A DNA stretch of 64,000 nt. It comes from Mobula hypostoma (taxonomy: Eukaryota). The notes beneath the pieces were generated by a model. The model did not search any database. It saw only the letters and a list, made by a program, of their open reading frames with translations, and was not told the DNA's origin. The translations under genes were made by a program, and so were the position numbers. This document shows, piece by piece, positions 1,343-48,243 of this stretch (position 1 is the stretch's first letter; every line of letters starts with the position of its first letter). The stretch covers positions 134,170,001 to 134,234,000 of the forward strand of contig NC_086097.1 in the NCBI RefSeq assembly GCF_963921235.1, read 5' to 3'.

Positions 1343-4095
1343 AACCATAAGGCCATAAGATATAGGAGCATAAATTGGCTATTCGGCCCATCGAGTCTGC
1401 TCCGCCATTCAATCATGGGCTGATGCAATTCTTCCAGTCATCCCCACTTCCCTGCTTTCACCCCATACCCTTTGATGCCCTGGCTAATCAAGAACCCATC
1501 TATCTATGCCTTACACCCAATGACTTAGCCTCCACAGCCGCTCGTGGCAACAAATTCCACAGATTTACCACCCTCTGACTAGGGTAATTTCTCTGCATCT
1601 CAGTTCTAAAAGGACGTCCTTCAATCCTGAAGTCATGCCCTCTTGTCCTGGAATCCCCTACCATGGGAAATAACTTTGCCATATCTAATCTGTTCAGGCC
1701 TTTTAACATTCATTATGTGATCGCCCCTCATTCTCCTAAACTCCAGGGAATACAGCCCAAGAGCTGCCAGACGTTCCTCATACGGTAACCCTCTCATTCC
1801 TGGAATCATTCTCGTGAAACTTCTCTGAACCCTCTCCAATGTCAGTACATCCTTTCTAAAATAAGGAGCCCAAACTGCACTCAATACTCCAAGTGTGGTC
1901 TCATGAGTGCCTTATAGAGCCTCAAAATCACATCCCAGCTCTTATATTCTATACCTCTAGAACTAAATGCCCACATTGCATTCGCCATCTTCATAATCGA
2001 CTCAACCTTGAGGTTAACCTTTAGGGTATGTTGCACAAGGACTCCCAAGTCCCTTTGCATCTCTGCATTTTGAATTCTATCCCCATCTAAATAGTAGTCT
2101 GCCCATTTATTTCTTCCTCCAAAATGCATGATCATACACTTTCCAACATTGTATTTCATTTGCCACTTCTTTGCCCATTCCCCTAAACTATCTAAATCTC
2201 TCTGCAGGCTCTCTGTTTCCTCAACACTTCCCGCTCCTCCACCTATCTTTGTATCATTGGCAAATTTAGCCTCAAATCCATTAATACCGTAGGCCAAATC
2301 ATTGACGTACATCATAAAAAGCAATGGTCCCAACACTGACCCCTGTGGATCTTCACTGGTAACCAGCAGCCAGCCAGAATAGGATCCCTTTATTCCCACT
2401 CTCTGTTTCCTGCCGACCAGCCAATGCTCCACCCATACTCCACCCATGCTAGTAACTTCCCTGTAACTCCATGGGCTCTTATCTTGCTAAGCAGCCTCCT
2501 GTACAGCATCCTGTCAAAGTCCTTCTGAAAATCCAAGTACACCACGTCTACTGCATTTCCTTTGTCTACCCTGCTTGTAATTTCCTCAAAGAGTTGCAGT
2601 AGGTTTGTCGGGCAGGATTTTCCTTTCTGGAAACCATGCTAGCTTTGGCCTATCTTGTTATGTGCCTCCAGGTATTCCATAATGTCATCCCTAACAATCG
2701 ATTCCAACAACTTCCCAGCCACTGATGTCAGGCTAACAGGTCTACAGTTTCCTTTCTGCTGCCTCCCACCCTTCTTAAATAGTGGAATAATATTTGCAAT
2801 TTTCCAGTCATCCAGTACAATGCCAGGATCTATAGATTCTTGAAAGGTAGTTGTTAATGCCTCTGCAATCCCTCCAGTTACTTCCTTCAGAACCCGAGGG
2901 TGCATTCTATCAGGTCCAGGAGATTTATACACCCTCAGACCTTTAAGCTTCCTGAGCGCCTTCTCAGTCGTAATTTTCACTGCACAAATTTCACTTCCCT
3001 GACACTCTTGAATGTCCAGTATACTGCAGACATCTTCCACTGTGAAGACTGATGCAAAATATCCATTCACTTCCTCTGCCATCTCTGCATCTCTCATTAC
3101 AATACCTTCAGCATCATTTTGTATTGGTCCTATATCTACCCTCAACTCTCTTTTACCCTTTTTATACTTAAAAAAGCTTTTAGTATCTTCTTTGATATTA
3201 ATAGCCAGCTTCCTCTCATTTTTCATGTTTCCCTTCTGAATGACCTTCTTAGTTTCCTTCTGCAAGTTTTTAAATGCTCCCCAATCCTCTATCTTCCCAC
3301 TAGCTCTGGCTTCCTTGTATGTCCTCTCTTTTGCTTTTACTTTGGCTCTTACTTCACTTGTCAGCCACGGTAGTGTCCTTCTTCCCTTTGAAAATTTCTT
3401 CTTATTTGGAATATATCTGTCTTGCATTTCCCTCATTTTTTGCAGAAACTCCAGCCATTGCTGTTCTGCTGTCCTTCCTGCAAATGTCCCTTTCCAGTTA
3501 ACTTTGTCCAGTTCTCCTCTCATGCCATTGTAATTTCCTATATTCCACTGAAATAGCGACACCTTGGATTTTATTTTTCCCTCTCAAATTTCAATGTGAA
3601 CTCAATCATATTGTGATCACTGTTCCCTAAGGGTTCCTTAACCTTAAGCTCTCTTATCACCTCCAGATCATTGCACAACACCCAATCCAGCATAGCCAAT
3701 TCCCTAGTGGGCTCAACAACAAGCTGTTCTAAAAATCCATCCCTTAGACATTCTACAAATTCTCTCTCTTGAGGTTCAGTACTGGCCTGGTTTTCCCAAT
3801 CCACTTTCATGTTAAAATCCCCAACGATTATCATGACATTGCCTTTCTGACACGCCTTTTCTATCACCTGCTGTAACTTGTAATCCACATCCTGGCTGCT
3901 GTTTGGAGGTCTGTATACAAATGCCATTAGGGTCCTTTTACTCTTGCCATTTCTTAATTCAACCTATAGAGACTCTACACCTTCCAATCCTATTCATCTC
4001 TTTCCAATGATTTAATATTATTTCTTATACACAGAACCACACCACCCACTCTGCCTACTAACCTATCTTTCCGATATACCATATATCCTTAGACA
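1343..4095 (-). mobile_element. CR1 LINE, 5'-truncated, ORF2 (APE endonuclease + RT) broken by stops and frameshifts
   Basis: ORFs 3571-3927 (YRPP, GDFN, SDHN), 2639-3562 (SPGPD, NCRPVSLTS), 1881-2447 (PQGSVLGP, FANDTK), 1633-1884 and 1500-1709; the 3' tail is a short ccataag repeat at about 1343-1365. Confidence 0.95.
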
Positions 4096-4575: not shown

Positions 4576-4804
4576 ATTCTTCTCCAAAGATCTGAACCCC
4601 TGGACCTGGAGCACCAGTGGACCACTTTTAGTCTTGCCTCAACCATTTGACCTTTTTGACATGGGTAACCCTGCCTAGAGCCAAAGCATAAAGCCCTTGA
4701 CAATGATATTGCCAAGAAATTACAGAGGAATCCTTGGAAAACACAAAGGTCAAGGGTGGCCACTGAAAATTTAAAAAATATATTACAGGCACTAATCAGA
4801 CAAT

Positions 4805-5062
4805 CGGCTGGTGGCGCAATGGCATCAGCGCTGAACTCCGGAGCGAAGGCTCCCGAGTTCGAATCCAGGTCGGGCCACCCCCCGAGCACACTTTCCATCC
4901 ATGCCGGGTTGAGCGTCGAGCTAGCCACTCGACCTCGTGAAAAAAAAGGGTCGAGTCAGGAACGTTCATATTGTGACCCGGTTAATCCGAAAGGAGAACG
5001 ATCCTGACACTACACACCAGACAAGAATGGCTGACTGTCTGGTATGACGCGCAAAAAAAAAA
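4805..5062 (+). mobile_element. Young tRNA-derived SINE with poly(A) tail and 11-bp target-site duplication
   Basis: Pol III A box TGGCGCAATGG at about 4812-4822 and B box GAGTTCGAATCC at 4855-4866; CpG-rich body; A tail 5053-5064; TSD AATCAGACAAT at 4794-4804 and 5063-5073. Confidence 0.9.
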
Positions 5063-5483
5063 AATCAGACAATGAGTTGAAATGTATGAATGAACTCAAG
5101 GAGCGTGGCATCACCAAGCACATTGACATTGGAGAGGGGATGGAAAAGAATACTGAGATCAACCATGTCCAGTACTCAAGGGGAAACAAAGATGGGATTA
5201 CTAGGGTTACAGGCACAACTTTATAAGGAGATGCTTTTGGTAAAAAGCTGATCAGAATGTTTAAAAATGTAAATAAAAAGTGAATTTAAGTCCGGAAAAG
5301 TTGGCGATGGATTTGTGAGCTGACAACACATTCAGATCTATGGAGAGGAAAGGGTGGTTGAAGATGGACAGAAGTATACAAGGATGGGGATGTTCATGGT
5401 TTTACTTTTCAGGGTGATGGTACCAGATCTGGAGATAAAGAGGCAGCACCCAAGGAGACAGAACTGTTAGCAATATCACCAAA

Positions 5484-5549: not shown

Positions 5550-5890
5550 CGTTTGGAGATAATATGGTTAAGGGAGCAGGAGGAAGATCTCATCAACATA
5601 CTGATGGCATGGAAGAAGATAAAGGAATTACTTAATGGAATTAGGTAAAGGCTAAGGCAGGGAGAAGATCGAATCTAATGGTCTTGAAGAAAAGAGGGGG
5701 TTCACCAGATGATCTAAACTTTGCTGTTAAAGAAAGGCATTGAAGTGAAGACTTAGGAATTTGATCTACCAAAAGAAACAAAACTAGGGATTATCTTTGC
5801 AGTCTTGAATGTTCCTGGGACACTGCACAGGAGCATTCTATGTGGTCCAACCAGAGGCAATGTACCATTTCCATCTATCACTGTCCCATG

Positions 5891-6588
5891 TGTAGCTCCC
5901 TGGCCAGCCTCAAGGTCACTCGGCTCGCTGTCGTCTAGGGAAACAGCCCTCGGCCCCACCAAACTGGGTAATAAGTTTGTGTGGATGCTGTGTGATGTAC
6001 CCCACCCCGCCCAAATAACAGACGATACACCAGATACAATTAAATGATTTACAGTTTATAGATATTACTGGAACTATATAATTAATAGAGAATAAAATAT
6101 AACAGGAAAATAAAAGGCGCCACACTTATCAAAGTTTAATCTCTTCGTGCACAAACTGCTGGAGCTCAGGACCCTTCTTCTTCACCCTGCAACCCCTAGG
6201 ACCACCTCGACCAGCCGCCTGGGACCAACAACGGTGGTCAGCCAGACGCTCCACACGAGTCCGTCTCCGTCTCCTCTCCTCGCCGAACGCCCCGCTCGGG
6301 GTTCAACCCCGTTAGCGGACTCACAGCACCTGGTCCATCCTCTGTCTCTCTCTCCCGCTTTCTCCCCCAAAACCCCACGCATACAATATCTTCAGATACA
6401 TCAAAAACATAACAACTATCTCAATTGGTTTGTAACATCTTCTTCTCACAGCCTAACCCAAAACAAGCTGCTAGCGCAAGAACTTTCTCAGCGTTTAACA
6501 TAACAAAGAAGCATTCCCAAGTATAACCTAACAAAGAAGCCATTTTAATTAGCCTAAGCAGTAACATTAAAGACGAAACCCCCTTACA
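5891..6588 (-). repeat. 3' LTR of Gypsy element 1
   Basis: Direct repeat of 9280-9986; begins tgtagc and ends cttaca. Confidence 0.95.
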
Positions 6589-6601
6589 CTCTCCTCCCGC
6601 C
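6589..6601 (-). other. Polypurine tract of Gypsy element 1
   Basis: The minus strand reads GGCGGGAGGAGAG immediately before the 3' LTR. Confidence 0.8.
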
Positions 6602-6870
6602 AAACAAAGTCATGTTCTCATGACTTCTAAATAACTCGCCAACTAGTCCTGCAGACACACAACACACACATACACAGATACACACAGTGACAGTGCTCCC
6701 CGAACAGTGGACCTTATGCCTGGTCCCACAGGCGCTACATAGGACACCCTATCTGAGAGCTTCCTAATCCTCCGATACCTCCGTACCCCCTCACCTAAAC
6801 TCTAAAGGCTCAGACACTACTAGGGATACCTCGGGCCTGCTTGCCAACTCCTCTCCCTCTCAGGCCACTA

Positions 6871-7866
6871 TTAAAACTCGAAGACCCCCCCGCCCCCCCG
6901 GGTCCCGTGTCCAGGGCCCCGCTTCTTTTCCTTTTTTCCTTCCTGATCCTGCCGTAACTCAGACTGCCCACAGCTAGCCCTCCCCACTACACCTGACTCA
7001 GTGGGAGAAGGGCCAAAGGTCTCTTCCTCAATCACGGGGAAGTTAGCGAAAGGCAGCAGGTACCACATGTCCAGCACATCATTCTTCGAATCCATATTCT
7101 TCCTCATTCCCTTGAATGGTTGTTGCTGTTTGAGTTTCTCCAAACTGAAACATTTAGCCGGGGCTACCCCTTCAGCCTCCTGTTTCTTCTTCCTGATGAC
7201 GTCTTCCAGGTCAACCTTCAGTTTTTCCACTTCATTTAAACTGTCGACAGTCATCTTCAGGTTCCTTTCAAGTGTCCGCCTCCCTTTTCCAAGATCTGTC
7301 CTCCATTTCTTCACCTCCTCGGGAGTGTAGTCAAACTCCCCTCCCTGGGCTCTCAGTTTTCTATTGGCCTTAGTCAGAACACTTCCTTGATCTCCCCCAA
7401 CTTGTAAGTCTTCCAATCTTTTCTGAATTGACGTCTTGAGTTTCTGCTGATCCCTTCGAAGGTGGGTCATTGTTTCTTCTTGCTGGATTAATTCATCAGT
7501 ACATGACCGCAGTGTTGGCTCGGAATTCTGTTGCTCCATCTCCATGTTGACGAGCGTGAATTCCAAGTCTGCAATGGTCATCTCACAAGTGTGGCACTCA
7601 GTCTCCGGCTGGCATTTCTGAGTGTTCAGTTCAGCGGTGCAAATCCCCTCTCTCCCATGTGTCTCATTCAGATTGACGACCTGGGTTTCCATCCCCAGGT
7701 CCACCACCGTCGGTTCCAACAACAGGAAGTTCAACTGGTATGTCAGGTCATTTTTCTCACATTGCACCAAACTCCTCCGGCCAAAAACTCCTCCACATTT
7801 GACACCGCCTCTGTCGCCCGGGTTCAGCCTCTCGCCTGACTTCATAGTCCCCCCAGGCGAATCCAA
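6871..7866 (-). CDS. 331-aa chimeric ORF: Gypsy integrase C-terminal remnant fused to a sarcomeric myosin heavy chain rod fragment (expression unknown)
   Basis: The N-terminal [17 protein letters not shown] resembles the Gypsy integrase-tail L.PGDRVLV.N.G..GK motif; residues of about 32-250 align with the myosin II coiled coil. Confidence 0.7.
7120..7773 (-). pseudogene. Captured intronless fragment of a sarcomeric myosin heavy chain rod (subfragment-2 region), most like MYH16
   Basis: [44 protein letters not shown] and [32 protein letters not shown] match, in order and spacing, myosin EKNDL.lQ, IDDLELTLAKVEKE, LDDLQAEEDKVN.LTK..KL and RRK.E.DLKMTID.LNE.E..KLDLEEVVKK (reference sequences recalled, not searched). 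Confidence 0.85.
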
Positions 7867-7869
7867 GCT

Positions 7870-8080
7870 CTAGGTGGTCATCCACATACGCCAAAACTCC
7901 ACACACCTTCACTTCCCCCATGGTCTTCCTCATGCCCCGCAGGAAGGATGCAGGGGCTCCGGATATGCCCTTGGGCATCTTTTCGGGTCGGAAGAATCCT
8001 AGGGAACTAATAACGGCCGTCTTCGGCTCGACAGCCGCACTCCTCGGGATCTGGCAACATCCACTCCTCAGATCTAGCAC
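7870..8080 (-). pseudogene. pol: Degenerate Gypsy reverse transcriptase core fragment
   Basis: [11 protein letters not shown]...[25 protein letters not shown]...VLAYVDD; the similarity ends right after YVDD. Confidence 0.9.
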
Positions 8081-8086
8081 ATTAAA

Positions 8087-8815
8087 TCACGTCACATAAT
8101 CCACACACACGCTGCCTCCATCTTCCACGCTGCCAGGGTCCAGTTGCCGCGACCTCTCTCTCACTGAGGTGTCTTCAGCAGTCAACTCCCCTCCCTCGTG
8201 GTAGTTGGGAGCATCTACTAAGAGGGTCTCACCCTCAGCTACTTTCCCCAAGCCGTACCACCGCTGGGTCTCACTTAAATTCAGTACCGGCTCAAGGCTG
8301 CTACACACATCCTCAGAAGCAACTTGACACGCTGGGTGCCCAGACAATGCCCCCATGAACTCCAGGGTCATTAACCAATCATCGTCTTCTGGATAACTAC
8401 TGGCACTGGTACCCAAAGTCTCCGGTGCCCTTGCGGTTGTCAAGGGTAAATGCTTCAGACACCGGTTGTAAAACGAACTGTACAACAACTTGACCTGCGC
8501 CGTGGCGTCGAGGATGGCTTGAGCATCGCTTCCCTCTATCTGTAACGACACCCTGGGGCGTGGCCCCTCTAAGCCTTCAGGAATAGGGTCTTTTCCTTTT
8601 GGAAGTTCATTGGTACATTGCTGGGAATGTGCATCCCCAGAGACCCCAAGCCATTCCCCCACTGGGCCTCCACTAAGTTTCCCGACACCTCTCTGATCAG
8701 CTGAGCAACTGAAGGAGGGGCTGATCCCCTGAAATGATCCCCCTGGCACTGCAAGCAATTTAGCCTCCCTCCTAGCCAGAGAAGACACATTGAAAACTTT
8801 CCCCCCCTCTTTCAA
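8087..8815 (-). pseudogene. pol: Degenerate Gypsy aspartic protease region
   Basis: [32 protein letters not shown]; the catalytic DTG has decayed to DAT. Confidence 0.8.
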
Positions 8816-9275
8816 AAAAACTGACAGCTGTCACTACGGTGTAAGTGAACCTGACAGCTCTAACACCGTCACCAGTCCACCTACTTAAACTTTCAACCAA
8901 TCCCTGTCGCTGTCCCTCAACCAAGCACTGCCACTCATCTAACAACTGAGAGATCCGCTCCGCCCACGTCTCGCACGCCTCCGCCCCTCTTGGGGTGGAC
9001 ACTATCCCAAACGCCAGGCAGAGCCTGCCAGAGCTAGAACATTTATTCGCAGACACTACCTCCAAATCAGACCACTCTTTCCTCTCTCTCCCAACAGCAT
9101 AGACAGCCCCAAGTTCCACCTCCAACTCGTCAATGCTAGTCTGAATTCGAACAAAGACCTCACCCACCACGCATGCAGCAGTAACCAGCAAATAACCCAC
9201 AGAGACACACATTACTGATTTAAACAGGGCACCCACACAGCATACCAGTAGACCCAATCCCAGACAAAAGCCCAC
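8772..9275 (-). pseudogene. gag: Degenerate PNMA-like Gypsy gag
   Basis: [42 protein letters not shown] resembles the PNMA/Gypsy capsid motif FSG..P.P.GEE.YE.W.EQ....L.EWQCS...KRQRLVESL. Confidence 0.8.
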
Positions 9276-9279
9276 ACAA

Positions 9280-9986
9280 TGTAGCCCCCCGGCCAGCCTC
9301 AGGGTCGCTCGGCTTGCTGTCGTCTAGGGAAACAGCCCTCGGCCCCGCCAAACTGGGTAATAAGTTTGTGTGGATGCTGTGTGATGTACCCCACCCTGCC
9401 CAAATAACAGACAATACACCAGATACAATTAAATGATTTACAGTTTATAGATATTACTGGAACTATATAATTAATAGAGAATAAAATATAACAGGAAAAT
9501 AAAAGGTGCCACACTTATCAAAGTTTAATCTCTTCGTGCACAAACTGTTGGAGCTCAGGACCCTTCTTTTTCACCCTGCGACCCAACGGACCACCTCGAC
9601 CAGCCACCTGGGACCAACAACGGTGGTCGACCAGACGCTCCACACGGGTCCGTCTCTGTCTCCTCTCCTTGCCGAACGCCCCACTCGGGGTTCGACCCCG
9701 TTAGCAGACTGACAGCACCTGGTCCATCCTCTGTCTCTCTCTCTCTCTCTCCCACCTTCTCCCCCAAAACTCCGCGCTTACAATATCTTCAGATACACCA
9801 AAAACATAACAACTATCCCAATTGGTTTGTAATATCTTCTTATCACAGCCTAACCCAAAACAAGCTGCTAGCGCAAGAACTTTCTCAGCGTTTACCATAA
9901 CAAAGAAGCATTCCCAAGTATAACATAACAAAGAAGCCATTTTAATTAGCTTATGCAGTAATATAAAAGACAAAACCCCCTTTACA
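9280..9986 (-). repeat. 5' LTR of Gypsy element 1
   Basis: Direct repeat of 5891-6588 with scattered substitutions and a longer (CT)n tract. Confidence 0.95.
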
Positions 9987-11466
9987 CATGGTTATTAAAA
10001 AGCAAAGATTAATGCAATGATAGCAGAGAGCAATATGAGGAAATGACCAGAGAAAGCTTTACATTTGACTGGGATGACATGGTGTATGCTGGAGTTGACA
10101 TGAAAATAGGCAAGAAAAGAGTCACTAAACAAGGATAAGAGTGTTTTGAACCCAGGTGAATTCATAAAGAGTTCGAACACAACAGGGACAAAAAAATTGT
10201 GGGTGCAGACACAGATGGAGGGAAGAAGAAATGTGATTTACTGATTGCCTGTGAGGTCTGACTGGTGGGAGATGTAACTTCAAAAGTGCTGGGACAATAT
10301 CTAAACAGGAGGAATGTGTACTTTATTATCACTTAAGAGGGGCTATAAATGTGTCTTTGAGTCTACTTTACCATTCAACAAGAACATTGATATCCCTGCA
10401 TTTCTAGTCCACAGTTTCCATATCCCTCAATTCTCAGGTACACAAAAATCAATCTCAGCCTTGAAAATACTCAAGGGGATTTTTTTTCTCTTTACAGCTC
10501 TATGATGTAGATAATTCCAAATGCATTCCACCAACTACTGCACAAGAAATATCATCTCCCTGGAGTCTCAAATGGCCCAACACCTCACACTGAGATACAT
10601 CCTCCTTGGTTGAACCTCTCCAGCCAGGAGGTGGAACCTCTCGGCGGCTATCTGTCAACGTCTCTCTAACGTAAATCTTCTTAATTCAACCCCCTTATCC
10701 AAAGAATCTCTTCCAATATTAGCCTGCACAATTACTGAGTCCTGATATTTTCACAGTAATTAAAAAATAAAGAACTTTAATAAATACACATTACAAGATT
10801 GATTCTCACTCATGCTCATAATAAGCTGGTGAACAACATACACTGGTATCTACTTAAGCATCAACATACCCCAAGGATTACTAGCACATGGAAATAAATA
10901 TTGTGCAGTGCAGGTGTTCATCTTTACACTGTACCTGATATCATGTCAATTCAGTCTGCAGAGATAGGCAACATACTAAGTTAAATCATATTAATAGTGC
11001 TTTAGATCTTATAACTATAAATAGATTTTTAATTCCCTTAATTTTATGGTATGTGAAAATTGCAATATAAAATCTCTGCTTAAAACCATCAGGGCCTTTA
11101 TTACATTTTATGAAATTGCCTGGCAAGAACTAAAATCTCTATTGAATGCAGAAGCTAATTCTTAGCATGCTTCCAGAGTCATTCCTCTAGCCACAAAAAG
11201 TATCTTGGCAGCTCTGTCATAAATGCTTTGTGGCTTGATCTGAAGCGTGATTCCAAATTTGAGACACTATTATTTCCTATTTAGAACAGTGTTTCTAGCT
11301 GTCAATGAGCAAGGATTTTTTTTTAAAGTTTGAACTAAAGTAACCTTGAATTGAAACATTCCTTCCTAAAATTCCTGCTTCCTTCCAGTGTAGCTTTCCT
11401 AAGAAGCCAGAAAGTCTACATTTTGTATAAGCAAGGACTGCTGTTTTTTCTATGAGTTGTAGTAGT

Positions 11467-15036: not shown

Positions 15037-15468
15037 GTTATAGAAAACTACAGCACAGTAACAGGCCCTTCAGCCCATCTAGTCCATGTTGAACCATTTA
15101 AACTGCCTGCTCCCATCAACCTACACCAATCGCATCCACCAATGGTGCTGCAGCTCTCACCATCCTCTGAGAGAAGAAGTTGCCCCTCGTGTTCCCAGTA
15201 AACATTTCATCTTTCACCCTTAACCGATGACCTGTAGTTGCAGTCTCATCAATGGAAAGAAACCTGCTTGCAGTTAACCTATCTATAACCCTCATAATTT
15301 TGCATATCTTTGTCAAATCTCCCCTCATTAATCTACTTTCTAATAACTAAAGTTCTAGCCTATTCAATCTTTCCTTATAACCCGGCAATATCCTTGTAAA
15401 TTTTCTCTGTAACACTTACAGTACGCTGGATGAACTCAGCAGGTCAGGCAGCATCAGTGGAAACGATG

Positions 15469-15504
15469 AGTCGACATTTCGAGTCAGAACCCTTCGTCAG
15501 GACT
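15469..15504 (-). ncRNA. Minimal type I hammerhead ribozyme motif in the inverted pseudo-LTR
   Basis: Minus strand reads AGUC CUGACGA A GGGU-UCUG-ACUC GAAA UG UC GACU. Confidence 0.7.
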
Positions 15505-15857
15505 GAAGAATGAAGGAGTTGGAAGGATTTGAAGAATGCTTGTAGGTTCAGTTGAAAGACCAGTAATTTGAAAGACAAAGGGGTGGGGGAGAGGAAGCAT
15601 CGACATCATGGCAGGAAAACAATGGGTAGTAGAAGAAGGAGGCGGAACCATGAGGGAGGTGATAGGCAGCTGGGGGAGGGGGCAGAGTGAAATAGGGATA
15701 GAGGAAGGGAGGGGATCGGTCCCTCCACGACTCCCTTATCTGCAAATCCATCCCCACGGATCTCCCACCCGGCACTTATCCCTGTAAGCGTAAGTGCTAC
15801 ACCTGTCCCTACACCTCCTCTCTTGCCACTATTCAGGGCCCCAAACAGTCCTTCCAG

Positions 15858-16184
15858 GTGAGGCAACACTTCACTTGTGAGTCTGTTGGGGTCATCTTTT
15901 GCATCCGGTGCTCCCGGTGCGGCCTCCTCTACATCGGTGAAACCCGACGCAGATTGGGGGACCGCTTCATTGAGCGCCTTCAATCCGTCCGCCACAACAG
16001 ACAGGATCTCCCAGTAGCCACCCACTTCAACTCTGCTTCCCACTCCCATTCAGATATGTCCATACATGGCCTCCTCTACTGCCATGATGAGGCTAAATTC
16101 AGGTTGGAGGAGCAACACCTCATATACCGTCTAGGTAGTCTCCAGCCCCTTGGTATGAACATAGAATTCTCCAACTTCCGGTAA
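15858..16184 (+). pseudogene. Penelope GIY-YIG endonuclease domain (C-terminal part of the ORF only)
   Basis: FTCESVGVIFCIRCSRCGLLYIGETRRRLGDRF...PVATHFNS..H...RLEEQHLI..LGSLQPLGMN. Confidence 0.92.
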
Positions 16185-16401
16185 TTCCCTCCCCCTCCCT
16201 TCCTCTATCCCTATTTCACTCTGCCCCCTCCCCCAGCTGCCTATCACTTCCCTCATGGTTCCGCCTCCTTCTACTACCCATTGTTTTCCTGCCTATGATG
16301 TCGATGCTTCCTCTCCCCCACCCCTTTGTCTTTCAAATTACTGGTCTTTCAACTGAACCTACAAGCATTCTTCAAATCCCCTTCCACCTCCTTCATTCTT
16401 C

Positions 16402-16437
16402 AGTCCTGACGAAGGGTTCCGACCCGAAACGTCAACT
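16402..16437 (+). ncRNA. Minimal type I hammerhead ribozyme motif in the Penelope 3' pseudo-LTR
   Basis: AGUC CUGACGA A GGGU-UCCG-ACCC GAAA CG UC AACU: conserved core, 4-bp stem II, palindromic ACGU in place of helix III, one mismatch in stem I. Confidence 0.8.
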
Positions 16438-19400
16438 CATCGTTTCCACTGATGCTGCCCGACCTGCTGAGCTCATCCAGCGTACTGTAAGTGTTGCTTT
16501 GATTACAGCATCTGCAGATTATTTTGTGTTTAAATTTTCTCTGTACTCTTTCAATCTTATTTACATCTTTCTTGTAGGTACAGCAGGTGAATGAAACTGC
16601 ACACAGTACTCCAACTTAGGCTTCATCAATATCCTATACCGCTTCAACATAACACGACAAATGCTGTACTCAATACATTGATCTATGAAGACCAATGTGC
16701 CAAAAGCTTTCCTTACAACCTTGGCTACAGTTCTGTGACGCCACTTTCAATAAATTATGGAGCTGTTTTCCCAGATCCCTTTGTTCTATTGCACTTCTCA
16801 GTATCCTACCGCCCACTGTCTAAGACCTACCCTGGTATGTCCTCCCAAAGTGCAACACCTCACACTTGTCTGCATTGAATTCTATCTGCCACTGTTCAGC
16901 CCATTTCTCCAGCTGGTCCAGATCCCACTGCAAGCTTTGATAGTCTTTCTCACTGTCCTCTACACCCCCAAACTTGGTGCCACCCACAAATTTGCTGATC
17001 CAGTTAACCGCATTATCATCCAGATCATCCACAACAGACCCAACACCAATACCTGTGACACTCTACTAGTCACAAGCTTTCAGTCAGAGAGGCAACCATC
17101 TACTACCACGCTCTGGCTTCTGCCCAAAGCCAATGTCTAATCCAATTCACTACCTCATCCTGAATATCAAGCAACTGAACCTTTTTGACCAGCCTTCCCT
17201 GCAGGACTTGTCAAATTCCCCGCTGAAATCCATGTGGACAATTTCCACTGTTTTGCCTTCATCAACTTTCCTGGTATTGACCTACTATGCTAACAATCCC
17301 TAATCAGTCCCTATCTATCTAAATATTCATATATTGGGTTGTTTAGAATACCTTCCCATATCTTTCCTACTACTGACATCTGGCTCACCAGCCAATAATC
17401 TCCAGGTTTATTTCTAGAACCTTTCTTAAACAGCAGAACAACATCAGCAATCCTCCAATCCTCTGGTACCCCACATGTCACTAAGGATGATTTAAATATC
17501 TCTGCTAGGGCCCCTGCAATTTCTGCACTTGCATCCCACATTGTCAGGCCTTGGGGATTTGTCCACCTAATTTGCCTCCTCCTCTGTAATCTGTATAGGG
17601 CCCATAAACTTGGTGCTGCTTTGCCTCATCTTATAGACTCAGGGTCAGTCTCCCGAGTAAATACAGATGGAAAAAATCGATTTACGATCTTGCAGTCTCT
17701 TTTGCCTCCATGGATAGATTACCATTCTGATCTTCCAGAGGACTAATTTTGTCCCTTGCAATCCTTTTGCTCTTTATACACATGTAGAAGGCCTTAGGAT
17801 TCTCCTTCACTTTGTCTGCTAGAGCAGCCTCATGACTTCTTTTAGCTCTCCCGACTTCTTTCTTGCATTTCATATACTCCTTAAGTACCTCATTTCTTCC
17901 TGCCTGCCTATACCTGCTATACACCTTTTTTTTCTTAATCTCTTTTGAAAACCAAGGTTTCCTAAACCTGTTATCCTTACCTTTTACTATATCAGGCACA
18001 TGCAAGCTTTGTGCTCTCAGAATTTCACTTTTGAAGGCCTCGCACTTGCCTTTGCCAGAAAACAGCTTGTCACAATCCACACTTGCCAATCCTTTCTGAT
18101 ACCAGCAAAATTGGCCTTTCACCAATTTAGAATCTCCACCCACAGATCTGACCTATCCTTTTCCATAGTTACCTTGAAACTAATGGCATTATGATCACTG
18201 AATGCAAAGTGTTCCCCTACACAAATCTCTGTCACCTGCCCTGTCTCATTCCCTAATAGGAGATCAAGTATTGCACATTCTCTTGTTGGGACTTCTATGT
18301 ACTGATTAAGAAAACTTTCCTGAACACATATGACAAACTCTATTCCATCTAGTACTTTACAGCATGGGAGTCCCAGTCAATATTTGTCAAGTTAAAATCA
18401 CCAACTATCATAACTTTATGTTTCTTGTAATAGTCTGTGATCTCCCTACAAATTAGTTCCTCTAAATTACACGGACTGTTGGGTGATATATAAGATAGCC
18501 ACATTAACGTGATCATACTTTTCTTATTCCTCATTTCTACTCATAAAGTCTCACTGGATGAGTTCTCCAGTCTGTTCTGACTGAGCACTGCCATGGCATT
18601 TTCCCACCCCTCCCCCTTTAATCCCTCCCACTCTATTCCGGTATGTTGAGCTGCTAGTCCTGCCCCTCCTACAAAAAAGTCTCATTATAGCTACAATATT
18701 ATAATTCCATGTGTTGATGCATGCCCTGATCTCATCTGCCTTCCTTACAACACTTCTTGCATTGAAATAAACGCAACTCAGAACGTTAGTCACATGCTCA
18801 ACCTTTTGATTTCTGAATTTGTCTGAGGTCTTAACGATATCTGTCTCCACAACCACTCCACTGTCTGTTCTGACACTCTGGTTCCCATACCCTGCAACTC
18901 TAGTTTAAGCACCTCTGTGCAGTACTAGCAAACCTTCCTGCTGGGATATTAGCCCCCACCAATTTAGTTGCAAATCGTCTCTTCTGTACAGGTCCAAAAT
19001 TCCCTGGAAGAGAGCCCAGTGATCCTCCCTCCTGCACCAACTCCTTAGCCATGTGTTAAACTGTATGATCTTCCTTTTTCTGGTGTCACTAGCATGTGGT
19101 ATGGGTAGGAGTCATGAGATCATGACCCTGGAGGTCCTGTCCTTTAATTTAGCACCTAACTCCATGAACTCATTTTGCGGAACCTCCTCCCTCTTCCTAC
19201 CTAAGTCATTGGACTGTATATGGACTATGACCTCTGGCTTCTCACCCTCCTACTTAAGAATGTTGAGGACTTGATCCAAGTTGTCCCAGACCCTGACGCC
19301 CGGGAGGCAACATATCATCCAGGAATCATCTTATCCATAGAACCTCCTTTCTGTTTCCCTGACTAACAAATCCCCTATCACCATAGCTCCCCTCTTTCTC

Positions 19401-32107: not shown

Positions 32108-33298
32108 TAGGGGTCCCCAACCTTTTTTGCATCGCGGACCGGTTTAATATTGACAATATTCTTGCGGACCGGCCGACCCAGTGGGGTCGGGGGGTGTTAA
32201 TCACAGCCAGAATATAGGTGATCAGTCAACTATAAGTCAATTGTAAGTGGCTAATACACTCGATTTAGTTTCTGAAGGGGTTTATCTAACAAATTTAATA
32301 TTAAACACACAGCACGTATTTTTCTTGCATGAATGTAGTGATAAGTCAATTACAACAGTGGTCCCAAACCTCCGGGCCACAAAGAATGCAGTAGTACAGC
32401 GGTAGCCAGAACACACCCACCACGTCTTTGAGAAAAAAGCCGAAATAAACAAGCTAATTGATTAGGTGCCACCTGGCATGTAAATGTTGACCCAGATCAG
32501 AGACAACGCAATCGGCAATTGCCTCTGATCTGGGCTGATATTTACGTGCTGGGCGGCACCTAATTAATTAGCTTGTTTATTTCAGCTTTTTTCTTAAAGA
32601 TGTGCTGGGTGCATTCCGGCCACTGCTGTATTCTTCGCGGCCCGGAAGTTGGGGACCACTGAATTCTAAGTCACTTATAAGTCAATAGCATCATAACATT
32701 CTAAGTAACGTTTGGATATTAAACACACAGCGCATATTTTCCCCGTATGAACATATAAAATCATTGCAACACACCAATATCGCTGAATCAGTGGGAGCCC
32801 TGGGCTTGTTTTCCTGCAACAACATGGTCCTATCGAGGGGTGATGGGAGACAGCGATACTCGAAGGGGGTTCCTTATGTCCAGTCTATTCCGCAATTTAG
32901 TTTTCATTGCATTCATTGCAGAAAACTCCGCTTTGCAGAAATATGTTGGAAATGGAAGCAACGTTTTCAGTGCTTTCGTGGCTATCTCAGGATATTCAGC
33001 CTTGACTTTGATCCAGAATGCCGGCAGAGATGTTATGTCAAACATACTTTTCAGCCCACCGTCATTTGCAAGCTCAAGGAGTTGATCTTTTTTTCGCGGT
33101 GACATGGATGATTCACCAGGGACATTCACAAATGGGTCACGGATCCATTCCTTTGCACGTCTTGGGTCACTGATGACCTCGCGTGCGTTAAAATTCAACA
33201 GTGCATGACAGGGAATGAGGAAAGGTGCAGCTGACTCATATCGTTTCATATCGCTAAATCATATTGTTTCCTTGTGGCCCGGTGGTTGGGGGCCACTC
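32108..33298 (-). mobile_element. Internally deleted hAT/Charlie transposon retaining the transposase C-terminal dimerization region
   Basis: TIR-like ends TAGGGGTCCCCAACC / GGTTGGGGGCCACTC; ORF 32830-33249 has WIRDPF, FWIKVKAEYPEIATKALKTLLPFPT, FSAM..MKTKLRNRL. Confidence 0.9.
32356..32661. mobile_element. Fold-back (palindromic) hAT MITE nested in the Charlie element
   Basis: TIRs CAGTGGTCCC ... GGGACCACTG; the two halves are reverse complements over most of their length; imperfect 8-bp TSD aattacaa / aattctaa. Confidence 0.9.
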
Positions 33299-36359: not shown

Positions 36360-38205
36360 CACTGGACAGCAAATTTTTTCAAATGTGTTACTTCCTCAGC
36401 AATTTTCTGTGGTTATGACACACCACTTGAAGCTTAACACAAATATAATTTCACACTACTTGTATCACATAGGAATTGAAGAAACAATAAATTAACTTTT
36501 ATTGAATATAATGCATTTAATTGCATAACGGTGCTGATGCTTTGCAATAGTTCAACTAAGGTAAAAATGTCTTGTTGATGATTTTCATTCGTACTCAGTG
36601 TCTGAGGCTTCCTGCTTAAGTGTCCAACAATACTCAGCCAGCACTGATGGATTCCAGTTGCCCTGATGCTGTTTCTCCATGACCACTATGTTCTGGTGAA
36701 ATCTTTCACCACACTTATCACTGACAGCACCAAGATTTGGAGGAGAGAAGTCTAAATGGGAATGCAAAAAATTAATCTTTAGTGACATATTTCACTTCAT
36801 GGTTTTGTATGGTTGAAGCATGTTGTCAACCAGCATGTAGTTTGGTGCTCTGCAGTAGCCAAGAACATTTTCAACAACATCCTTGAATGCCTTCCATGTG
36901 ATTTTCTCCGGTCCCACTAGAAGTTCTTCGAATTGCCTGTAATTCATGATCTGTTTCATTTGTGGACCAACCAAAATGCCTTCCTTAATCTTGGCATCTG
37001 TTATTTTTGGAAATATCTATCTCAAATATTGAAATCCTTCATAGAAATTTTTGTGCCTGGTGACAGCAGATTCCATCCTTGCAGTCTTGAGCCCAGTAAT
37101 CCGATCACAAACAAGAGAAAATTTGCAGATGCTGGAAATCCAAGCAACACACACAATATGCTGGAAGAACTCAGCAGGCCAGGCAGCATCTATGGAAAAG
37201 AGTATTGTCGAAGTTTCGGGTCAAAACTCTTCGACAGGATCCAGTAATTCTGCTTTGGCCTTTGACAAACCCAAGTCTCTGACCAGGTCGTTTAACTCAG
37301 ATTGAATTATCAGATGAGGCTCGCTCAACATACAGCATTCAAAATTTGTATCAGTATCATTTCCCAGTTTTACCTAGTGCATCATGACATCTTCGTCTGC
37401 CTCCTCTAGACTCCATGTCGCTGGTGGCTTTGATACTGGAAGACTATCGTCATGTGGAACAGAAGTCGTGGCTGAAGGGAGATTGGGGTATTCAATTGAT
37501 TTCTCGTTGTTAGCAAAGAAGCCAGACACACTGGTCAGACAGAAATAGCAGTCTGTCACATGATCCTTCTGCTCTCACCATATCATCAGGTTAGTGAATG
37601 GCATTGACTGCCGAGTACCTCTGAGCCAAGCTTGAAGATCGACAGCGTGAGAAGCCCAAGCTTTGTCTTGGTCACCAATTTTACACCCAAAGTAGAGCTC
37701 ACAGGTTTTCTTAACAAGAGGAGTCATGTTCCATCTTTGAGATTTAAGCGTAGATTCACCACAAATATAACAGAAAGTATCGCAGCTGTTGCAATATTGG
37801 TGAGATAGTTTGCTACCACAAATACTCCCGAGAATACAATTACTTTATTATACTGAGTACACAATATGCTTTTCAGGTAGAGCATGTGCATGCAAACTGA
37901 TAAACATGTAAACGCAATGCACAGAACGGTGTGTGTGTAATGCTTTTATAGCCTTTCTAATACATGTCCTGCCATGCAGCATCCGCCCTGCCTAAGCATA
38001 CCTAGACAAGATAGAAAACTTTACAGATTACCTTGTGGGCAATATTTCAGTTGACTTGAATTATGAATTGATATAACAAATAAAGGTAATTACAAAATAA
38101 TGGTGTGCGATAGGGAAATTACATGGCGATTTTCATGATCAGCAGCCCAAAATCCATAAAATACTCCCAAAAGTATTCAAGAAGCTAAATCTTTGTTGTC
38201 CAGTG
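36360..38205 (-). mobile_element. Chapaev3 (CMC superfamily) DNA transposon, internally deleted
   Basis: TIRs CACTGGACAGCAAA / TTTGTTGTCCAGTG; 3-bp TSD TAA at 36357-36359 and 38206-38208; transposase motifs DCYFCLT..IEYPNLPSA, VGPQMK, MSLKINFLHSHLDF, GERFHQ, YCWTL. Confidence 0.9.
37101..37240 (-). mobile_element. Penelope tail fragment inserted in the Chapaev3 element
   Basis: Same tail sequence as 47774-47910; flanked by CCAGTAAT at 37093-37100 and 37241-37248. Confidence 0.8.
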
Positions 38206-41200
38206 TAAGGGGTTCAAATGCAACCTGATCAATGCCTTATAAAGGCTCAGCATCACATCTTTGCTCTTATATTATAGTCCTCTCAAAATGAATGCTACAT
38301 TGCATTTGTCTTCCTTACCAATGACTCAACCTGCAAGTTAACCCTTAGGGAAGCCTGCACAAGGTCTTCCAAATACCTCTGCTCCTCTGATTTTTGAATT
38401 TTCTCCTCTTTTAGAAAATAGTCTATGCCTTTATTCCTTCTACCAAAGTGCATGACCATACATTTTCTTACACTGCATTCCATCTGCCACTTCTTTGCCC
38501 ATTCCCCCAATATGTCAAAGTCTTCTGCAGAATCCCTGCTTCCTTAACACTACCTGACCCTCCCCCTATTTTTTATCATCTGCAAACTTGGCTACAAAGC
38601 CATCAATTTCGTCATCCAAATCATTGACATATAATGTGAAAACAAGTGATCCCAACACCAACCCCTACGGAATTCCACTAGTCACTGGCAGCCAACCAGA
38701 GTAGGTCCTCAACTCCTTGCCTCCTGCCAATCAGCCAATCTTCTACCATGCTGGAGTCGAGGACCTATTCTGTAATACAATGGGCTCCTATCTTATTAAG
38801 CAACCTCACATGCGGCATGTTGTCAAAGGCCTTCTGGACTCCAACATCTGCCCAACCACTAAAGTCAGGCTAACTGGCCTATCATTTCCTTTCTTCTGCC
38901 TCCCTCCCTTACTAAAGGTGGAGTGGCATTTGCTGTTTTCCAGTCCTCCAGAACCATTCCAGAATCTACTGATTCTTGAAAGATCATTTCTAATGCCTCC
39001 ACAATCTCTTCAGCTTCCTCTTTCAGAACTCTGGGGTGTAGTTCATCTTATCCCTGTGACTTATTTACCTTCAGACCATTCAGCTTCCCAAGCACCTTCT
39101 CCTTAATATTAACAATTACACTCATTTCTGCTCCCTGACACTCTCAAATTTCTGGTGTAGTGTCTTCCACAAAGATGATTGATGCAAAATACTTATAAAG
39201 TTCATCCGCCTTTTTTTTTCCCTAGGTTCTCTAGCATCATTTTCCAGCAGTCCAGTATACACTCCTGCCTTTCTTTTACTCTTTATAAATCTGAAAAAAA
39301 ATTCTTTTGGTATCCCCTTTGATATTTTTGGCTAGTTTACCTTCATAATTCATCTTTTCTCTCCTTATGAAATTTTTTAGTTGCCCTCTACTGGTTTTTA
39401 AAAGCTTCCCAATCCTCTAACCTGTCACTATTTTTTGCTATATTATATGCACTCTCATTTGCTTTTATTCTCTCCTTGACTTCTCTTTTCAGCCACAGTT
39501 ACCTATTCTTCCTTTAGAATACTACTTCATCTTTGGGGTGTATCTATCCTGAGCCTTCTTAATTGCTACTGCTGAGTGACCCCTCCAATCAACTTTGAGG
39601 CCAGCGCCTCTCTCATGCCTCTGTAATTTTCTTTACTCCACTATAATACTGATACATCTGACTTTAGTTTCTCCTTCTCAAACTGCTAGGTGAATCCTAT
39701 CATAATATGATCACTGCCTCCCAAGGATTCCTTTATCTTAAGCTCCCTAATCAAATCTGCTTCATTATACAACCCCCAATCCAGAAATGTCTTTCCCTTA
39801 GAGGGCTCAAACACAAGCTGCTCTAAAAAGCCAACTAATAGGCTTTCTACAAATTCCCTCTCTTGGGATCCAGCAACAACCTGATTTTCCCAATCTACCT
39901 GCAAATTGAATTCCCTCATGACTATCGTGACATTGCCCTTAATACATGCCATTTCTATTTCCCTTTGAAATGTATATCCCACCTCCTGGCTACTGTTCAG
40001 GGGCCTGTATATAACTTCCATCAGGGTCTTTTTACCCTGGGAGTTTCTTAACTCTACTGCAAGGATACTACAGCTTTCAATTCTATGTCACCTCTTTCTA
40101 AGGATTTGATTTTATTTTTTACCAACAGATCTACCCCTCTGACTACCTGCCTGTCCTTTCCACACAAGGTGTTTCCTTGGATGTTAAGCTCCCATCTATG
40201 ATCTTCTTTCAGGCATGTTTCAGTCATGCCCACAATGTCACACCTGCCAGTCTCTAACTGTGCTACAAGATCACCCATCTTATTCCATATATGCCTTGAC
40301 CTACTGAGTTCCTCCAACAGAACTCCAAATTCCAGCATCTGCATTCTCTCATGTCTCTAGTGGAGAAGCTGCAAGTCCAAGCCTTCCTGTAAAGTTTTGA
40401 CAGCCAGTGCCATAAGACCATGAGACATAGGAGCAGAATTAGGCCATCTGGCCCTTTGAGTCTGCTTCGCCATTCAATCATGACTGATAATTTCTTTTAT
40501 ATCTCCTCCACAACCCTAGTTCCCGGCCTTCTCCCTGTAACCTTTGATGCCAGTACAATCAAGAACCTATCAATCTCTGTCTTAAATACACCCAGCGATC
40601 AGGACTTCACAGCTGCATGTGGCCACAAATTCACCATCACCTAAAGAAATTTCTCCACATCTCTGTTTCGAAAGGGTGCCCCTCTATCCTGAGGCTGTAC
40701 CCTCTTGTCCTAGACTCTCTCACCATGGGAAACATCTTTTCCACATCTACTCTGTCTAGGCCTTTCAACATTCGAAAAGTTTCAATGAGATCCCCCCCTC
40801 ATCCTTCTGAATTCCACTGAATACAGAACCAGAGCCATCAAATGTTCTTTGTATGATAACCTTTCCATTCCTGGAATCATCCTTGTGAACCTCCTCTGGA
40901 CCCTCTCCACTGCCAGCACATCTTTTCTAAGATGAGGGGCCCAAAACTGTTCACAATACTCAAGGTTCACAATACTGTTCACCAGTGCCTTATAAAGCCT
41001 CAGCATCATATCCTTGCTCTTTGATTCTAGACCTCTTGAAATGAATGCTAACATGGCATTTGCCTTCCTCACCACCAACTCAACCTGCAAGTTAACCTTT
41101 AGGGTGTTCTGCACAAGGACTCCCAAGTCCCTCTGCATCTCAGATTTCTGTATTTTCTCCCTGCTGAGAAAATAGTCCACACATTTATTTCTACTACCAA

Positions 41201-41367
41201 AGTGCATGAGCATGCATTTTCCAACACTGTGTTTCATTTGCTACTTCCTTGCCAATTTTCCTAATCGGTCAAAGTTCTTTTGCATCCTACCTGTTTCCTT
41301 AACACTAACTGCCCTCCACCAATCTTCATATCATCTGCAAACATAGCAAAAAAGCCATCTATTCCAT

Positions 41368-41597
41368 TGAAGCACGTTTAATAACTCCAAAAGACTGAGG
41401 TTTGGTAAAATACTGAAAGGCTTTTATTCGCTGTACAATATGAATTCCACGGTGAGTGTCTGCCCCCGGACTGAGGGGGAGGGGCAAGGCGAAACACCTT
41501 TATATAGGATTCTGTGGGAGGAGCCACAGGGTCAGTCAGCAGAGGGGCGTGTCCAGACAGTTAACCCAGTTACAACATATATACATGGTTTACCACA
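41368..41597 (-). repeat. 3' LTR of Gypsy element 2 (polypurine tract adjacent at 41598-41617)
   Basis: Direct repeat of 45641-45868; the minus strand upstream reads AAAAAAAAAGGAGGGGTGAA. Confidence 0.95.
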
Positions 41598-41669
41598 TTC
41601 ACCCCTCCTTTTTTTTTAAAAAAGAGTCCCGTGGGGTGAAGTGACTGACAATATTTAAAACAAGTATAT

Positions 41670-44650: not shown

Positions 44651-44844
44651 GTCACTGTCTTGGTCCGGCGCGGTGGGGTGCCCCGTGAGCACCCATTGGT
44701 CGTAGGCAGTGGGAGGTGGCACCAACCAAGATGGCCGCCCCCATGTCTCGCATGTGGTGGCGGCGTGCTGGGAAGATGGCGGCAGGCAAGATGGCGACCC
44801 CCATGTTTCGCACACGGCGCTGCTCGATCCCACTCGCGGTTTGA

Positions 44845-45614
44845 CCCTTCGCGAAGTGGCCCTTCTTTCCGCAGCTGGAACAGGTAGCTTCTCGGATCGG
44901 GCAGCGTTTCCGGGGGTGCTTCTCCAGTCTGCAGAAGTAGCACTTTGCGGACTCGTGACTGGCAGCAGCCAAGGTCAATTTGCCGGCTGGTTGTGGGGAC
45001 TTGAGAATGGTGGCAGCCGAGGTCGATTTGCCGGTGGGTTGCAGGGTCTGCAGCGCCCATGAGGCCATCGGGGGATTGCGTGCCTGGAGAGCCTTGGAGT
45101 TATGCAGAGCAGCCTCCAGCGTGTCGGCCAGTTCGATCGCTGAACTTAAGGTAAGATCAGCTTTTTCCAACAGCCGCTGGCGCACATACACTGACCTGGT
45201 CCCCGTGACGAAGGCGTCTCTCACTAGGAGCTCTGCTTGCTGCGCCGCCATCAGCTCCTGGCAATTGCAGGCTCACACGAGTGTCCGTAGGGCCTGGACG
45301 AACTTAGCACTTGATTCCCTGGGCCGTTGTTGCCATGTCACTAAGCGGTGCCAAGCATAGCCGCTGTTTATCGGCCGCAGGTATTGTCCTTTGAGGGCAC
45401 TCATCGTACCATCGTAGCTTGGCTGGTCTCTGATCAGCGAATAGACCCATGGACTGACCCTGGAGAGTACAACTCTGCGCTTCGCTACGGGGTCGGTCAT
45501 TTTAATCTGCTCTAGGTACGCTTCGAAGCAGGCCAGCCAGAGTTCAAAAGCATTTCCAGCTTCAGGCGTTTGCGGATCGAGGTCTAATTTGTCGGGTCTC
45601 AGGGCATGTTCCAT
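44845..45614 (-). pseudogene. gag: Gypsy gag with tandem zinc knuckles, frameshifted
   Basis: ATG lies 27 nt after the 5' LTR; ORFs 45273-45614 and 44652-45251; CYFC...H...RC and CSSCGKKGHFAK. Confidence 0.9.
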
Positions 45615-45640
45615 GCTTTAAAATGTACAGCGAATAAAAT

Positions 45641-45868
45641 TGAAGCACCTTCAATAACTCCAAAAGACTGAGGTTTGGTAAAATACTGAAAGGCTTTTAT
45701 TCGCTGTACAATACGACCTCCATGGTGAGTGTCTGCCCCCGGACTGAGGGGGAGGGGCAAGGCGAAACACCTTTATACTGGAAACTGTGGGAGGAGCCAC
45801 AGGGGCAGTCAGCAGAGGGGCGTGCCCAGACAGTTAACCCAGTTACAACATATATATGGTTTACCACA
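45641..45868 (-). repeat. 5' LTR of Gypsy element 2
   Basis: Direct repeat of 41368-41597; minus-strand TATAAA at about 45772-45777 and AATAAA at 45696-45701. Confidence 0.95.
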
Positions 45869-47773: not shown

Positions 47774-48243
47774 GCAGACACGAGGAAATCTGCAGATGCT
47801 GGAAATTCAAGCAACACACACAAAAGTTGCTGGTGAACGCAGCAGGCCAGGCAGCATCTATAGGAAGAGGTACAGTCGATGTTTTGGGCTGGGACCCTTC
47901 GTCAGGACTAACTGAAAGAAGAGATAGTAAAAGATTTGAAAGGGGGAGGGGGAGATCTGAAATGATAAGACCTGGATTCAGAATTTATCTCGAGATGTAT
48001 CAGAATCCGGTTTATTGGCACAGACAGCACCCATTATCAACTTTCCAGCTCTTAGCTTCATCCCTCCCCTTTCTGTCTTCTCCTATCATTTCGGATCTCG
48101 CCCTCCTCCTCACACTTTCAAATCTCTTACCATCTCTTCTTTCAGTTAGTCCTGACGAAGGGTCCCGGCCCGAAGCATCGACTGTACCTCTTCCTATAGA
48201 TGCTGCCTGGCCTGCTGCGTTCACCAGCATTTTTTGTGTGTGT
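47774..48243. mobile_element. Penelope-derived inverted pseudo-LTR pair with 15-bp TSD
   Basis: Arms at about 47815-47968 (minus) and about 48080-48243 (plus) are reverse complements; TSD CAATC(A/G)TATTGTGAT at 47759-47773 and 48244-48258. Confidence 0.92.

Follow-up and report, generated by a model that had tools for sequence, protein, structure and literature searches.

The window, that is, the whole 64,000-nucleotide stretch of Mobula hypostoma DNA analysed here, carries at 5891-9986, on the minus strand, a non-autonomous Gypsy element with long terminal repeats (LTRs) that are 94% alike and with a CATG target-site duplication on both sides (5887-5890 on the left, 9987-9990 on the right). 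The 5' LTR (9280-9986, minus strand, 707 bp) and the 3' LTR (5891-6588, minus strand, 698 bp) were delimited by comparison with each other; both have TG...CA ends, and they differ at 41 of 699 aligned bases. The 2.7-kb interior contains, in this order, a weak PNMA-like gag remnant, a weak reverse transcriptase (RT) remnant and a 331-codon frame. A first-pass annotation, made from the letters of the window, had described a Gypsy LTR element bounded by a target-site duplication and a 331-codon open frame at 6871-7866; both descriptions held, the frame lying on the minus strand. Counts for the family given below refer to 27 copies, namely the window copy and 26 of 29 other loci, which are the best matches to the window rather than a random sample; L012, L014 and L027 were dropped beforehand for internal duplications or rearrangements.

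All further parts are likewise on the minus strand. A decayed primer-binding-site-like stretch (9257-9276), identified by its position and its conservation among copies, presumably resembles a tRNA-Pro site. The gag remnant (8569-9212) is a PNMA-like capsid piece with no zinc knuckle (PF14893, E 8e-4, below the cut-off); its ATG at 9212 is kept in 23/23 rows covering that position, and in the window copy the frame is shifted in a homopolymer tract near 8810. Protease and short inter-domain remnants (8111-8690) were recognized by comparison with a full-length relative, L042. The catalytic triad of the protease is lost across the family, with DPG at the triad position in 16/27 copies and DSG in 1/27. 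The heptamer GGGAAAC (8677-8683), at the gag/pol overlap, is a candidate -1 frameshift site that is present in 19/27 rows, a count that keeps rows without that region in the denominator, and L042 carries the same heptamer. GGGAAAC serves as a -1 frameshift site in Gypsy-derived genes. The RT remnant (7841-8110) is truncated (PF00078, E 0.001, below the cut-off) and holds a stop at 8087-8089 in the window copy; the RT of another copy, L016, matches that of L042 at 48% over 91 amino acids. A plain polypurine tract (6589-6601) adjoins the 3' LTR. The domain remnants are collinear with gag, protease, RT and RNase H of L042, and the position of the integrase is taken by myosin-derived DNA. The window copy is a decaying insert, broken upstream of the myosin frame.

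Other repeats surround the element. A second Gypsy-type element (41366-45868, minus strand) lies inside a LINE remnant; its LTRs, of 236 bp, are 94% alike, and it has frames for RT, RNase H and integrase. Many remnants of CR1-like LINEs, among them endonuclease and RT pieces, occur at 1345-3963, 31000, 38200-41300, 45800-48700, 58700 and 63000. Upstream of the element, a short tRNA-like SINE (4795-5075) carries motifs like A and B boxes, has an A tail and is flanked by direct repeats of about 11 bp; a tRNA gene search of the window found none. A long inverted repeat (15408-16495), with arms 94-100% complementary, surrounds a 160-codon frame presumably similar to the GIY-YIG endonuclease of Penelope-like elements, and another inverted repeat (32395-33258), with 112-nt arms, adjoins a 142-codon frame presumably resembling the end of a hAT-type transposase.

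Myosin identity and order of the fused parts

Residues 58-232 of the 331-codon frame align gap-free to residues 913-1087 of myosin-7 (E 2e-15 in a search of 177,635 PDB sequences), and the likeness is therefore to myosin and not to coiled coils in general. A Pfam search of the 331-amino-acid frame returned no myosin family, the match having come through the PDB sequences. The proposal that this frame follows the myosin II rod register for register was thus borne out, and its limits have changed. The rod segment had been placed at 7120-7773 as a single stretch of about 200 residues; the myosin-derived bases run from near 7710, not 7773, to 7112, and in the window copy they form two blocks, with rod residue ~1078 joined to ~1392. 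Behind this join is a 162-nt deletion common to 8/27 copies, most copies keeping those bases. Over all copies together the captured span starts at about residue 888 and extends to about 1419, with deletions that vary between lineages; residues about 1000-1078 are retained in the window copy, L022 and L036-L039. The last myosin block (7112-7182) corresponds to rod residues of about 1392-1419 in Callorhinchus MYH16-like numbering.

The myosin piece had been read as fused into an integrase tail, and this reading has to be replaced. The full-length relative L042 encodes gag, zinc knuckles, RT, RNase H, H2C2 and rve, while the chimera matches L042 on both sides of the integrase and not across it, which is why the integrase is regarded as lost from the chimera. 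Residues 246-292 of the open frame, positioned after the myosin part, match the pol tail of L042 (22/47 identical, E 4e-06); this Gypsy pol C-terminal tail (6871-7111) is in frame with the myosin part and runs to a stop. In L042 itself, over 2 kb of tandem repeats (L042:7421-9500) extend the pol frame past the tail. By these alignments, the order of the fusion is RNase H remnant, myosin and pol tail, with myosin replacing the integrase.

Two motifs at the start of the frame were likewise reassigned. The motif LNPGDR..VK.GG (7791-7840), which had been taken for the integrase tail, sits between the RT and RNase H remnants, collinear with the RT connection region by its order in less-deleted copies, although protein scores are not significant either way. 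It enters the 331-codon frame only via a loss of 2 nt, with the frameshift near 7805, that no other copy shares with the window copy. The motif EKNDLTYQL, offered as a myosin signature of MYH16 type, belongs to a stretch (7702-7790) that aligns to Gypsy RNase H at both the DNA and the protein level, and the matching part of L037 hits Pfam RT_RNaseH (E 1e-9); a short shared stretch overlaps the start of the myosin part. At the end of the preceding donor exon the motif is absent. After EKND, P rather than L is found in 20/27 aligned copies and the P-to-L change in 6/27, and the likeness of EKNDLTYQL to myosin is due to chance, helped by that change.

Donor gene and evidence of splicing

The donor was found by way of a Narcine protein, which led to a host exon on contig C68. 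Its exons B (14564082-14564186), C (14583580-14583666), D (14612358-14612503) and E (from 14615500) are preceded by AG and followed by GT, the limits of exon E being read from the splice sites, and are separated by introns of 19.4, 28.7 and 3.0 kb. In the window these exons are joined with the introns precisely missing: exon B complete at 7423-7527 (105 nt, 81% identical to the donor), exon C complete at 7336-7422 (87 nt, 85%), exon D complete at 7190-7335 (146 nt, 81%; donor G000:C68:14612358-14612503) and the first 7 nt of exon E at 7183-7189, where the 162-nt deletion begins. The part at 7528-7710 corresponds, from about residue 905, to the exon for rod residues 888-963, with limits taken from the paralogue on contig C36; the donor's version of this exon is absent from the C68 segments fetched (L043-L045 and L046-L049). 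The exon joints are contiguous in 27/27, 27/27 and 25/27 aligned copies, and identity to donor exons D and E is 88-98% in L036-L039, which are less decayed. A spliced transcript had been proposed, with a check for crossing of exon-exon junctions; three donor exons are joined, the alternative of a match within a single exon fails, and the element almost certainly captured a spliced mRNA.

The donor gene (G000:C68:14480496-14737159, plus strand; L032, L043, L046, L048) extends over more than 250 kb and adjoins a fast myosin cluster, separate from the canonical MYH16 on C36. Its four exons that were read are open, and the closest relative found is the Narcine protein P0017. The C36 gene and the C68 donor share exon limits, including the MYH16-type extra introns; against the tail exons of Callorhinchus MYH16-like, the C68 gene is 55-76% identical and the C36 gene 58-90%. 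In a tree of 25 rod segments, from which fast skeletal myosins were left out and in which the element rows are of odd composition, the Narcine protein and the elements cluster together (100/99); they lie outside the canonical MYH16 group (93/88) and fall on the MYH16 side of a split (99/98) from MYH7, 7B, 15 and two outgroup rows. The earlier preference for MYH16 over MYH6/7 therefore stands as to type, against MYH7, 7B and 15, and fails as to canonical MYH16. Because of the exon match on C68 and this placement, the donor is assigned to a divergent second MYH16-type gene.

Other donors were considered and rejected. The canonical MYH16 on C36 reaches only 72% over 58 nt, against 81-85% between the window and the C68 exons, and a myosin gene on C2 was ruled out at 72.9% over 59 nt. 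A DNA search with the upstream myosin part gave only element copies among the best 40 of 775 candidates, and a search for the exon-end pattern missed the donor, which differs at that site (two unrelated matches against one in the control). The genome also holds long intron-free myosin-tail matches, most with stops (G000: C18:48745314-48746731, C50:30689110-30689772, C21:138691427-138692201, and further ones on C184, C157, C22, C12 and C9), which are probably processed copies of other myosin genes.

A large non-autonomous family in rays

Rather than an isolated event, the element is one copy of a large, multi-genus ray family. In a DNA search of its own genome (3.48 Gb), 840 first-look candidates were obtained, and the best 40 were all at least 91% identical over the main piece. 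The copy-number check by protein search went further: the best 150 of 1,154 candidates all matched, one of them being the host exon, which gives at least 149 places. Subfamilies reach down to 78% identity. Annotated proteins of related chimeric build occur in Mobula birostris, M. hypostoma, Hypanus sabinus (one under the name 'putative uncharacterized protein MYH16') and Hemitrygon akajei. These are regarded as element copies because in several of them RT or the pol tail is fused to the myosin piece; the annotated relatives P0006, P0010 and P0018 are without most of this myosin block. The family is inferred to be older than the split of Mobula, Hypanus and Hemitrygon, with transfer between genera as a possibility.

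L036-L038 have the same 3' myosin joint as the young family, which argues for a single origin of the chimera. In L037 and L038, the 5' myosin joint coincides, or very nearly so, with the beginning of an exon in the C36 paralogue, which may be chance or a hint of the capture route. Both flanks of the myosin piece are discontinuous parts of one LTR element and there is no poly(A), as in LTR-mediated retrocopies, and later deletion joints in family copies carry short repeats. The chimera spread as a non-autonomous family that then lost gag, pol and myosin pieces. Since the protease triad is lost and the RT truncated, the family would need a helper. A search with RNase H returned, among the best 150 of 4,192 candidates, frames of over 1,000 codons that belong to a related full-length family; the LTRs of L042 and of the chimera have only short stretches in common. 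Contigs of four runs, guessed to be RNA, covered 22-23 of 30 bins of the element at 85% likeness and left the right flank uncovered, and for a repeat this is uninformative on expression.

The open frame and the absence of amino acid constraint

The myosin part of the family evolves like unconstrained DNA. Its dN/dS is 0.92-0.99 relative to L037/L038 (kappa 3), and shifted frames give 0.84-1.04; the shared changes comprise 41 synonymous and 126 non-synonymous ones, against 41.7 and 109.7 expected. Four prolines are common to 21-27 of the 27 copies and none of them occurs in donor exons B-D. First dN/dS estimates of 0.55-0.65 proved to be an artefact of transition bias, which disappeared with the shifted frames and kappa 3. 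The value between donor and window (0.60) mixes in the donor branch, and the last myosin block has a within-family dN/dS of 0.37 (20 codons, kappa 1). Given a dN/dS close to that of shifted frames and the four shared prolines, it appears that no working coiled coil is being kept and that the myosin protein is unconstrained.

The frame itself behaves differently. Across 707 codons, no column has stops in more than 7/27 copies, and the four commonest are CpG sites. Among 383 testable codons, shared stop gains number 0 against 6.1 expected from the family's own directional mutation spectrum (P 0.002); with polarisation, which assigns 37/41 changes to the young branch, the expected number drops to about 5.5 (P about 0.004). 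CGA codons have become stops in 4-7/27 inserted copies and are kept in the moving lineage. Modal spacing is in frame for 20/21 intervals, the exception being the gag/pol offset of -1 at GGGAAAC, where the end of the upstream frame resembles that of the overlapping frame in L042; in L042 itself gag runs into pol without an offset, so the -1 shift is deduced from how the two frames look. Sequence following the heptamer forms no more stable an RNA fold than shuffled controls do (z 1.0 and -0.4). Of the private indels, only 19/90 have lengths divisible by three. About eleven pol-frame joints are all in frame, for which a hand calculation gives about 1 in 4,000, but in-frame blocks are easier to see; deletions between repeats tend to be in frame in any case (40-60% of repeat pairs), and at least one short block is read outside its natural frame.

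Taken by part, the signal is weaker. For the myosin part alone, stop gains number 0 in the coding frame and likewise 0 in each of the two shifted sense frames, with eight in the three antisense frames, and the result is not significant (simulated probability of zero 0.06-0.17). This part is moreover ascertained, the family having been noticed through its open frame. The gag-protease-RT part alone had 3.1 stop gains expected and 0 seen (P about 0.05). Altogether, these counts make it quite probable that the open frame has been under selection in the moving lineage.

Origin and maintenance of the chimera

We propose that a myosin mRNA was co-packaged with the RNA of the element, and that the reverse transcriptase would have switched onto it after RNase H, at about rod residue 888, and returned to the element in the pol tail, at about residue 1419. 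A template switch had been suggested by the first-pass annotation as the way in which a cellular mRNA was captured; the capture of a spliced mRNA is seen directly, and the switch is very likely the route. Full-length relatives would then provide proteins in trans. The myosin piece would be filler with irrelevant amino acids, and the moving lineage would be selected for an open gag and pol-myosin frame. The likeliest reason would be that the passage of ribosomes shields the RNA from nonsense-mediated decay or aids packaging in cis. This step is plausible because the fused frame of mouse IAP 1delta1 aids movement in cis and because readthrough can block decay. Readthrough of 1-5% can suffice to prevent nonsense-mediated decay, subject to how long the downstream frame is (PMC5360307), and after frameshifting, too, the outcome is set by the position of the final stop (PMC9661723). 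In its best reading, the family would thus have been selected for a translatable RNA and not for a protein, to which we assign a probability of roughly 0.6. The fuller picture, in which host coding DNA served as ready-made stop-free filler, was carried across ray families over tens of millions of years and had its frame kept from gag to the pol tail while every protein function decayed, is tentative and somewhat short of an even chance.

The same capture and spread could have left an open frame through luck and ascertainment, the piece and its frame being neutral cargo. The stop tests on myosin alone, which do not reach significance, the P of about 0.05 in the unascertained gag-protease-RT part, the tendency of repeat-guided deletions to favour the frame and the lack of amino acid constraint anywhere in the myosin part are all in keeping with such cargo. 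It would have to accommodate, however, 0 stop gains overall against about 5.5 expected, about eleven joints that all keep the pol frame (roughly 1 in 4,000) and CGA codons kept in the moving lineage yet decaying to stops in 4-7/27 inserted copies, and we consider it unlikely, although it is the most serious of the alternatives. That the myosin piece instead works as a coiled coil, either as an oligomerising fusion or by docking on helper particles or the cytoskeleton, or that the host adopted a copy, would fit its being in frame in most copies, the retention of residues about 1000-1078 in the copies named above and the dN/dS of 0.37 in the 20 codons of the last block (kappa 1). A dN/dS near 1 over 172 codons and the four shared prolines speak against it, as do the deletion of different parts in different lineages, the loss of most of the block from P0006, P0010 and P0018 and the break upstream in the window copy itself; at the family level a coiled-coil role is already largely refuted, and the whole proposal is highly improbable.

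The route of capture has an alternative of its own, in which a processed copy made by LINEs recombined into a Gypsy element, or an element in a donor intron was spliced to the myosin exons. The genome is LINE-rich and holds other intron-free myosin rod matches, and in L037/L038 the myosin begins on, or very close to, the first base of an exon of the C36 paralogue. But the piece replaces central pol with both flanks in order, ends inside an exon and has no poly(A), and since this is the pattern of the double template switches described in PMC5131818, such a route is highly improbable. Selection for a translatable RNA, following capture by template switching, thus remains our preferred account.

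Significance and relation to known systems

A captured fragment of a muscle gene has here become part of a large, long-lived family, while the animal cases reviewed are few-copy. If the open-frame signal holds, 'frame kept' becomes separable from 'protein kept' on a measurable scale, a point relevant to how some crippled elements come to outnumber their helpers; and if the filler reading is true, the family is a natural long-term experiment in which translation in cis, and not the protein, sustains a non-autonomous element. The family also cautions against taking long open frames in such elements as a sign of domestication, and in ray genomes copies already bear the gene labels 'MYH16' or 'myosin heavy chain-like'. 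The donor, in turn, points to a second MYH16-type gene in batoids. A literature search found neither a myosin-carrying Gypsy family, although Repbase/Dfam, subscription papers and supplements may hold one, nor, with subscription papers and supplements as the same limits, a second MYH16 of cartilaginous fish. The donor shares the extra introns of MYH16, the masticatory myosin (PMC6402096, PMC11050549), and its side of the tree, but is a second gene on C68 that groups with the Narcine protein outside the canonical group.

The capture process itself has already been described. Tan et al. 2016 (PMC5131818), in the portion of the paper available, report LTR-mediated retrocopies in fly, mosquito, zebrafish, chicken and mouse as well as human. 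These, like the ray chimera, are partial intron-free mRNA pieces within an LTR element, with no poly(A), often in frame and mobile non-autonomously. By the same portion, however, they are single- or few-copy and mostly young, whereas the ray family occupies at least 149 places and three genera, and cartilaginous fish do not figure in the study. What is new here is the open-frame signal and the second MYH16-type donor. The Bs1 element of maize (PMC5131818, PMC5408686) also carries captured exonic sequence in a hybrid frame and re-transposed with shared joints, but has 1-5 copies, three donor genes and a hybrid protein described as functional, in contrast to the single donor, far higher copy number and lack of constraint in rays. 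The mouse IAP 1delta1 elements, as presented in PMC6466679, are likewise non-autonomous, internally deleted and very successful, with a fused open frame whose translation in cis is reported to aid movement. They differ in being betaretrovirus-like endogenous retroviruses with one deletion and no host sequence, and in that their cis effect comes from experiment, whereas the ray family has many deletions and host filler and its effect is inferred. By the marks that were tested, the chimera classes as both an LTR-mediated retrocopy and a non-autonomous Gypsy element; by analogy, its origin would be like that of Bs1, and its upkeep perhaps like that of IAP 1delta1.
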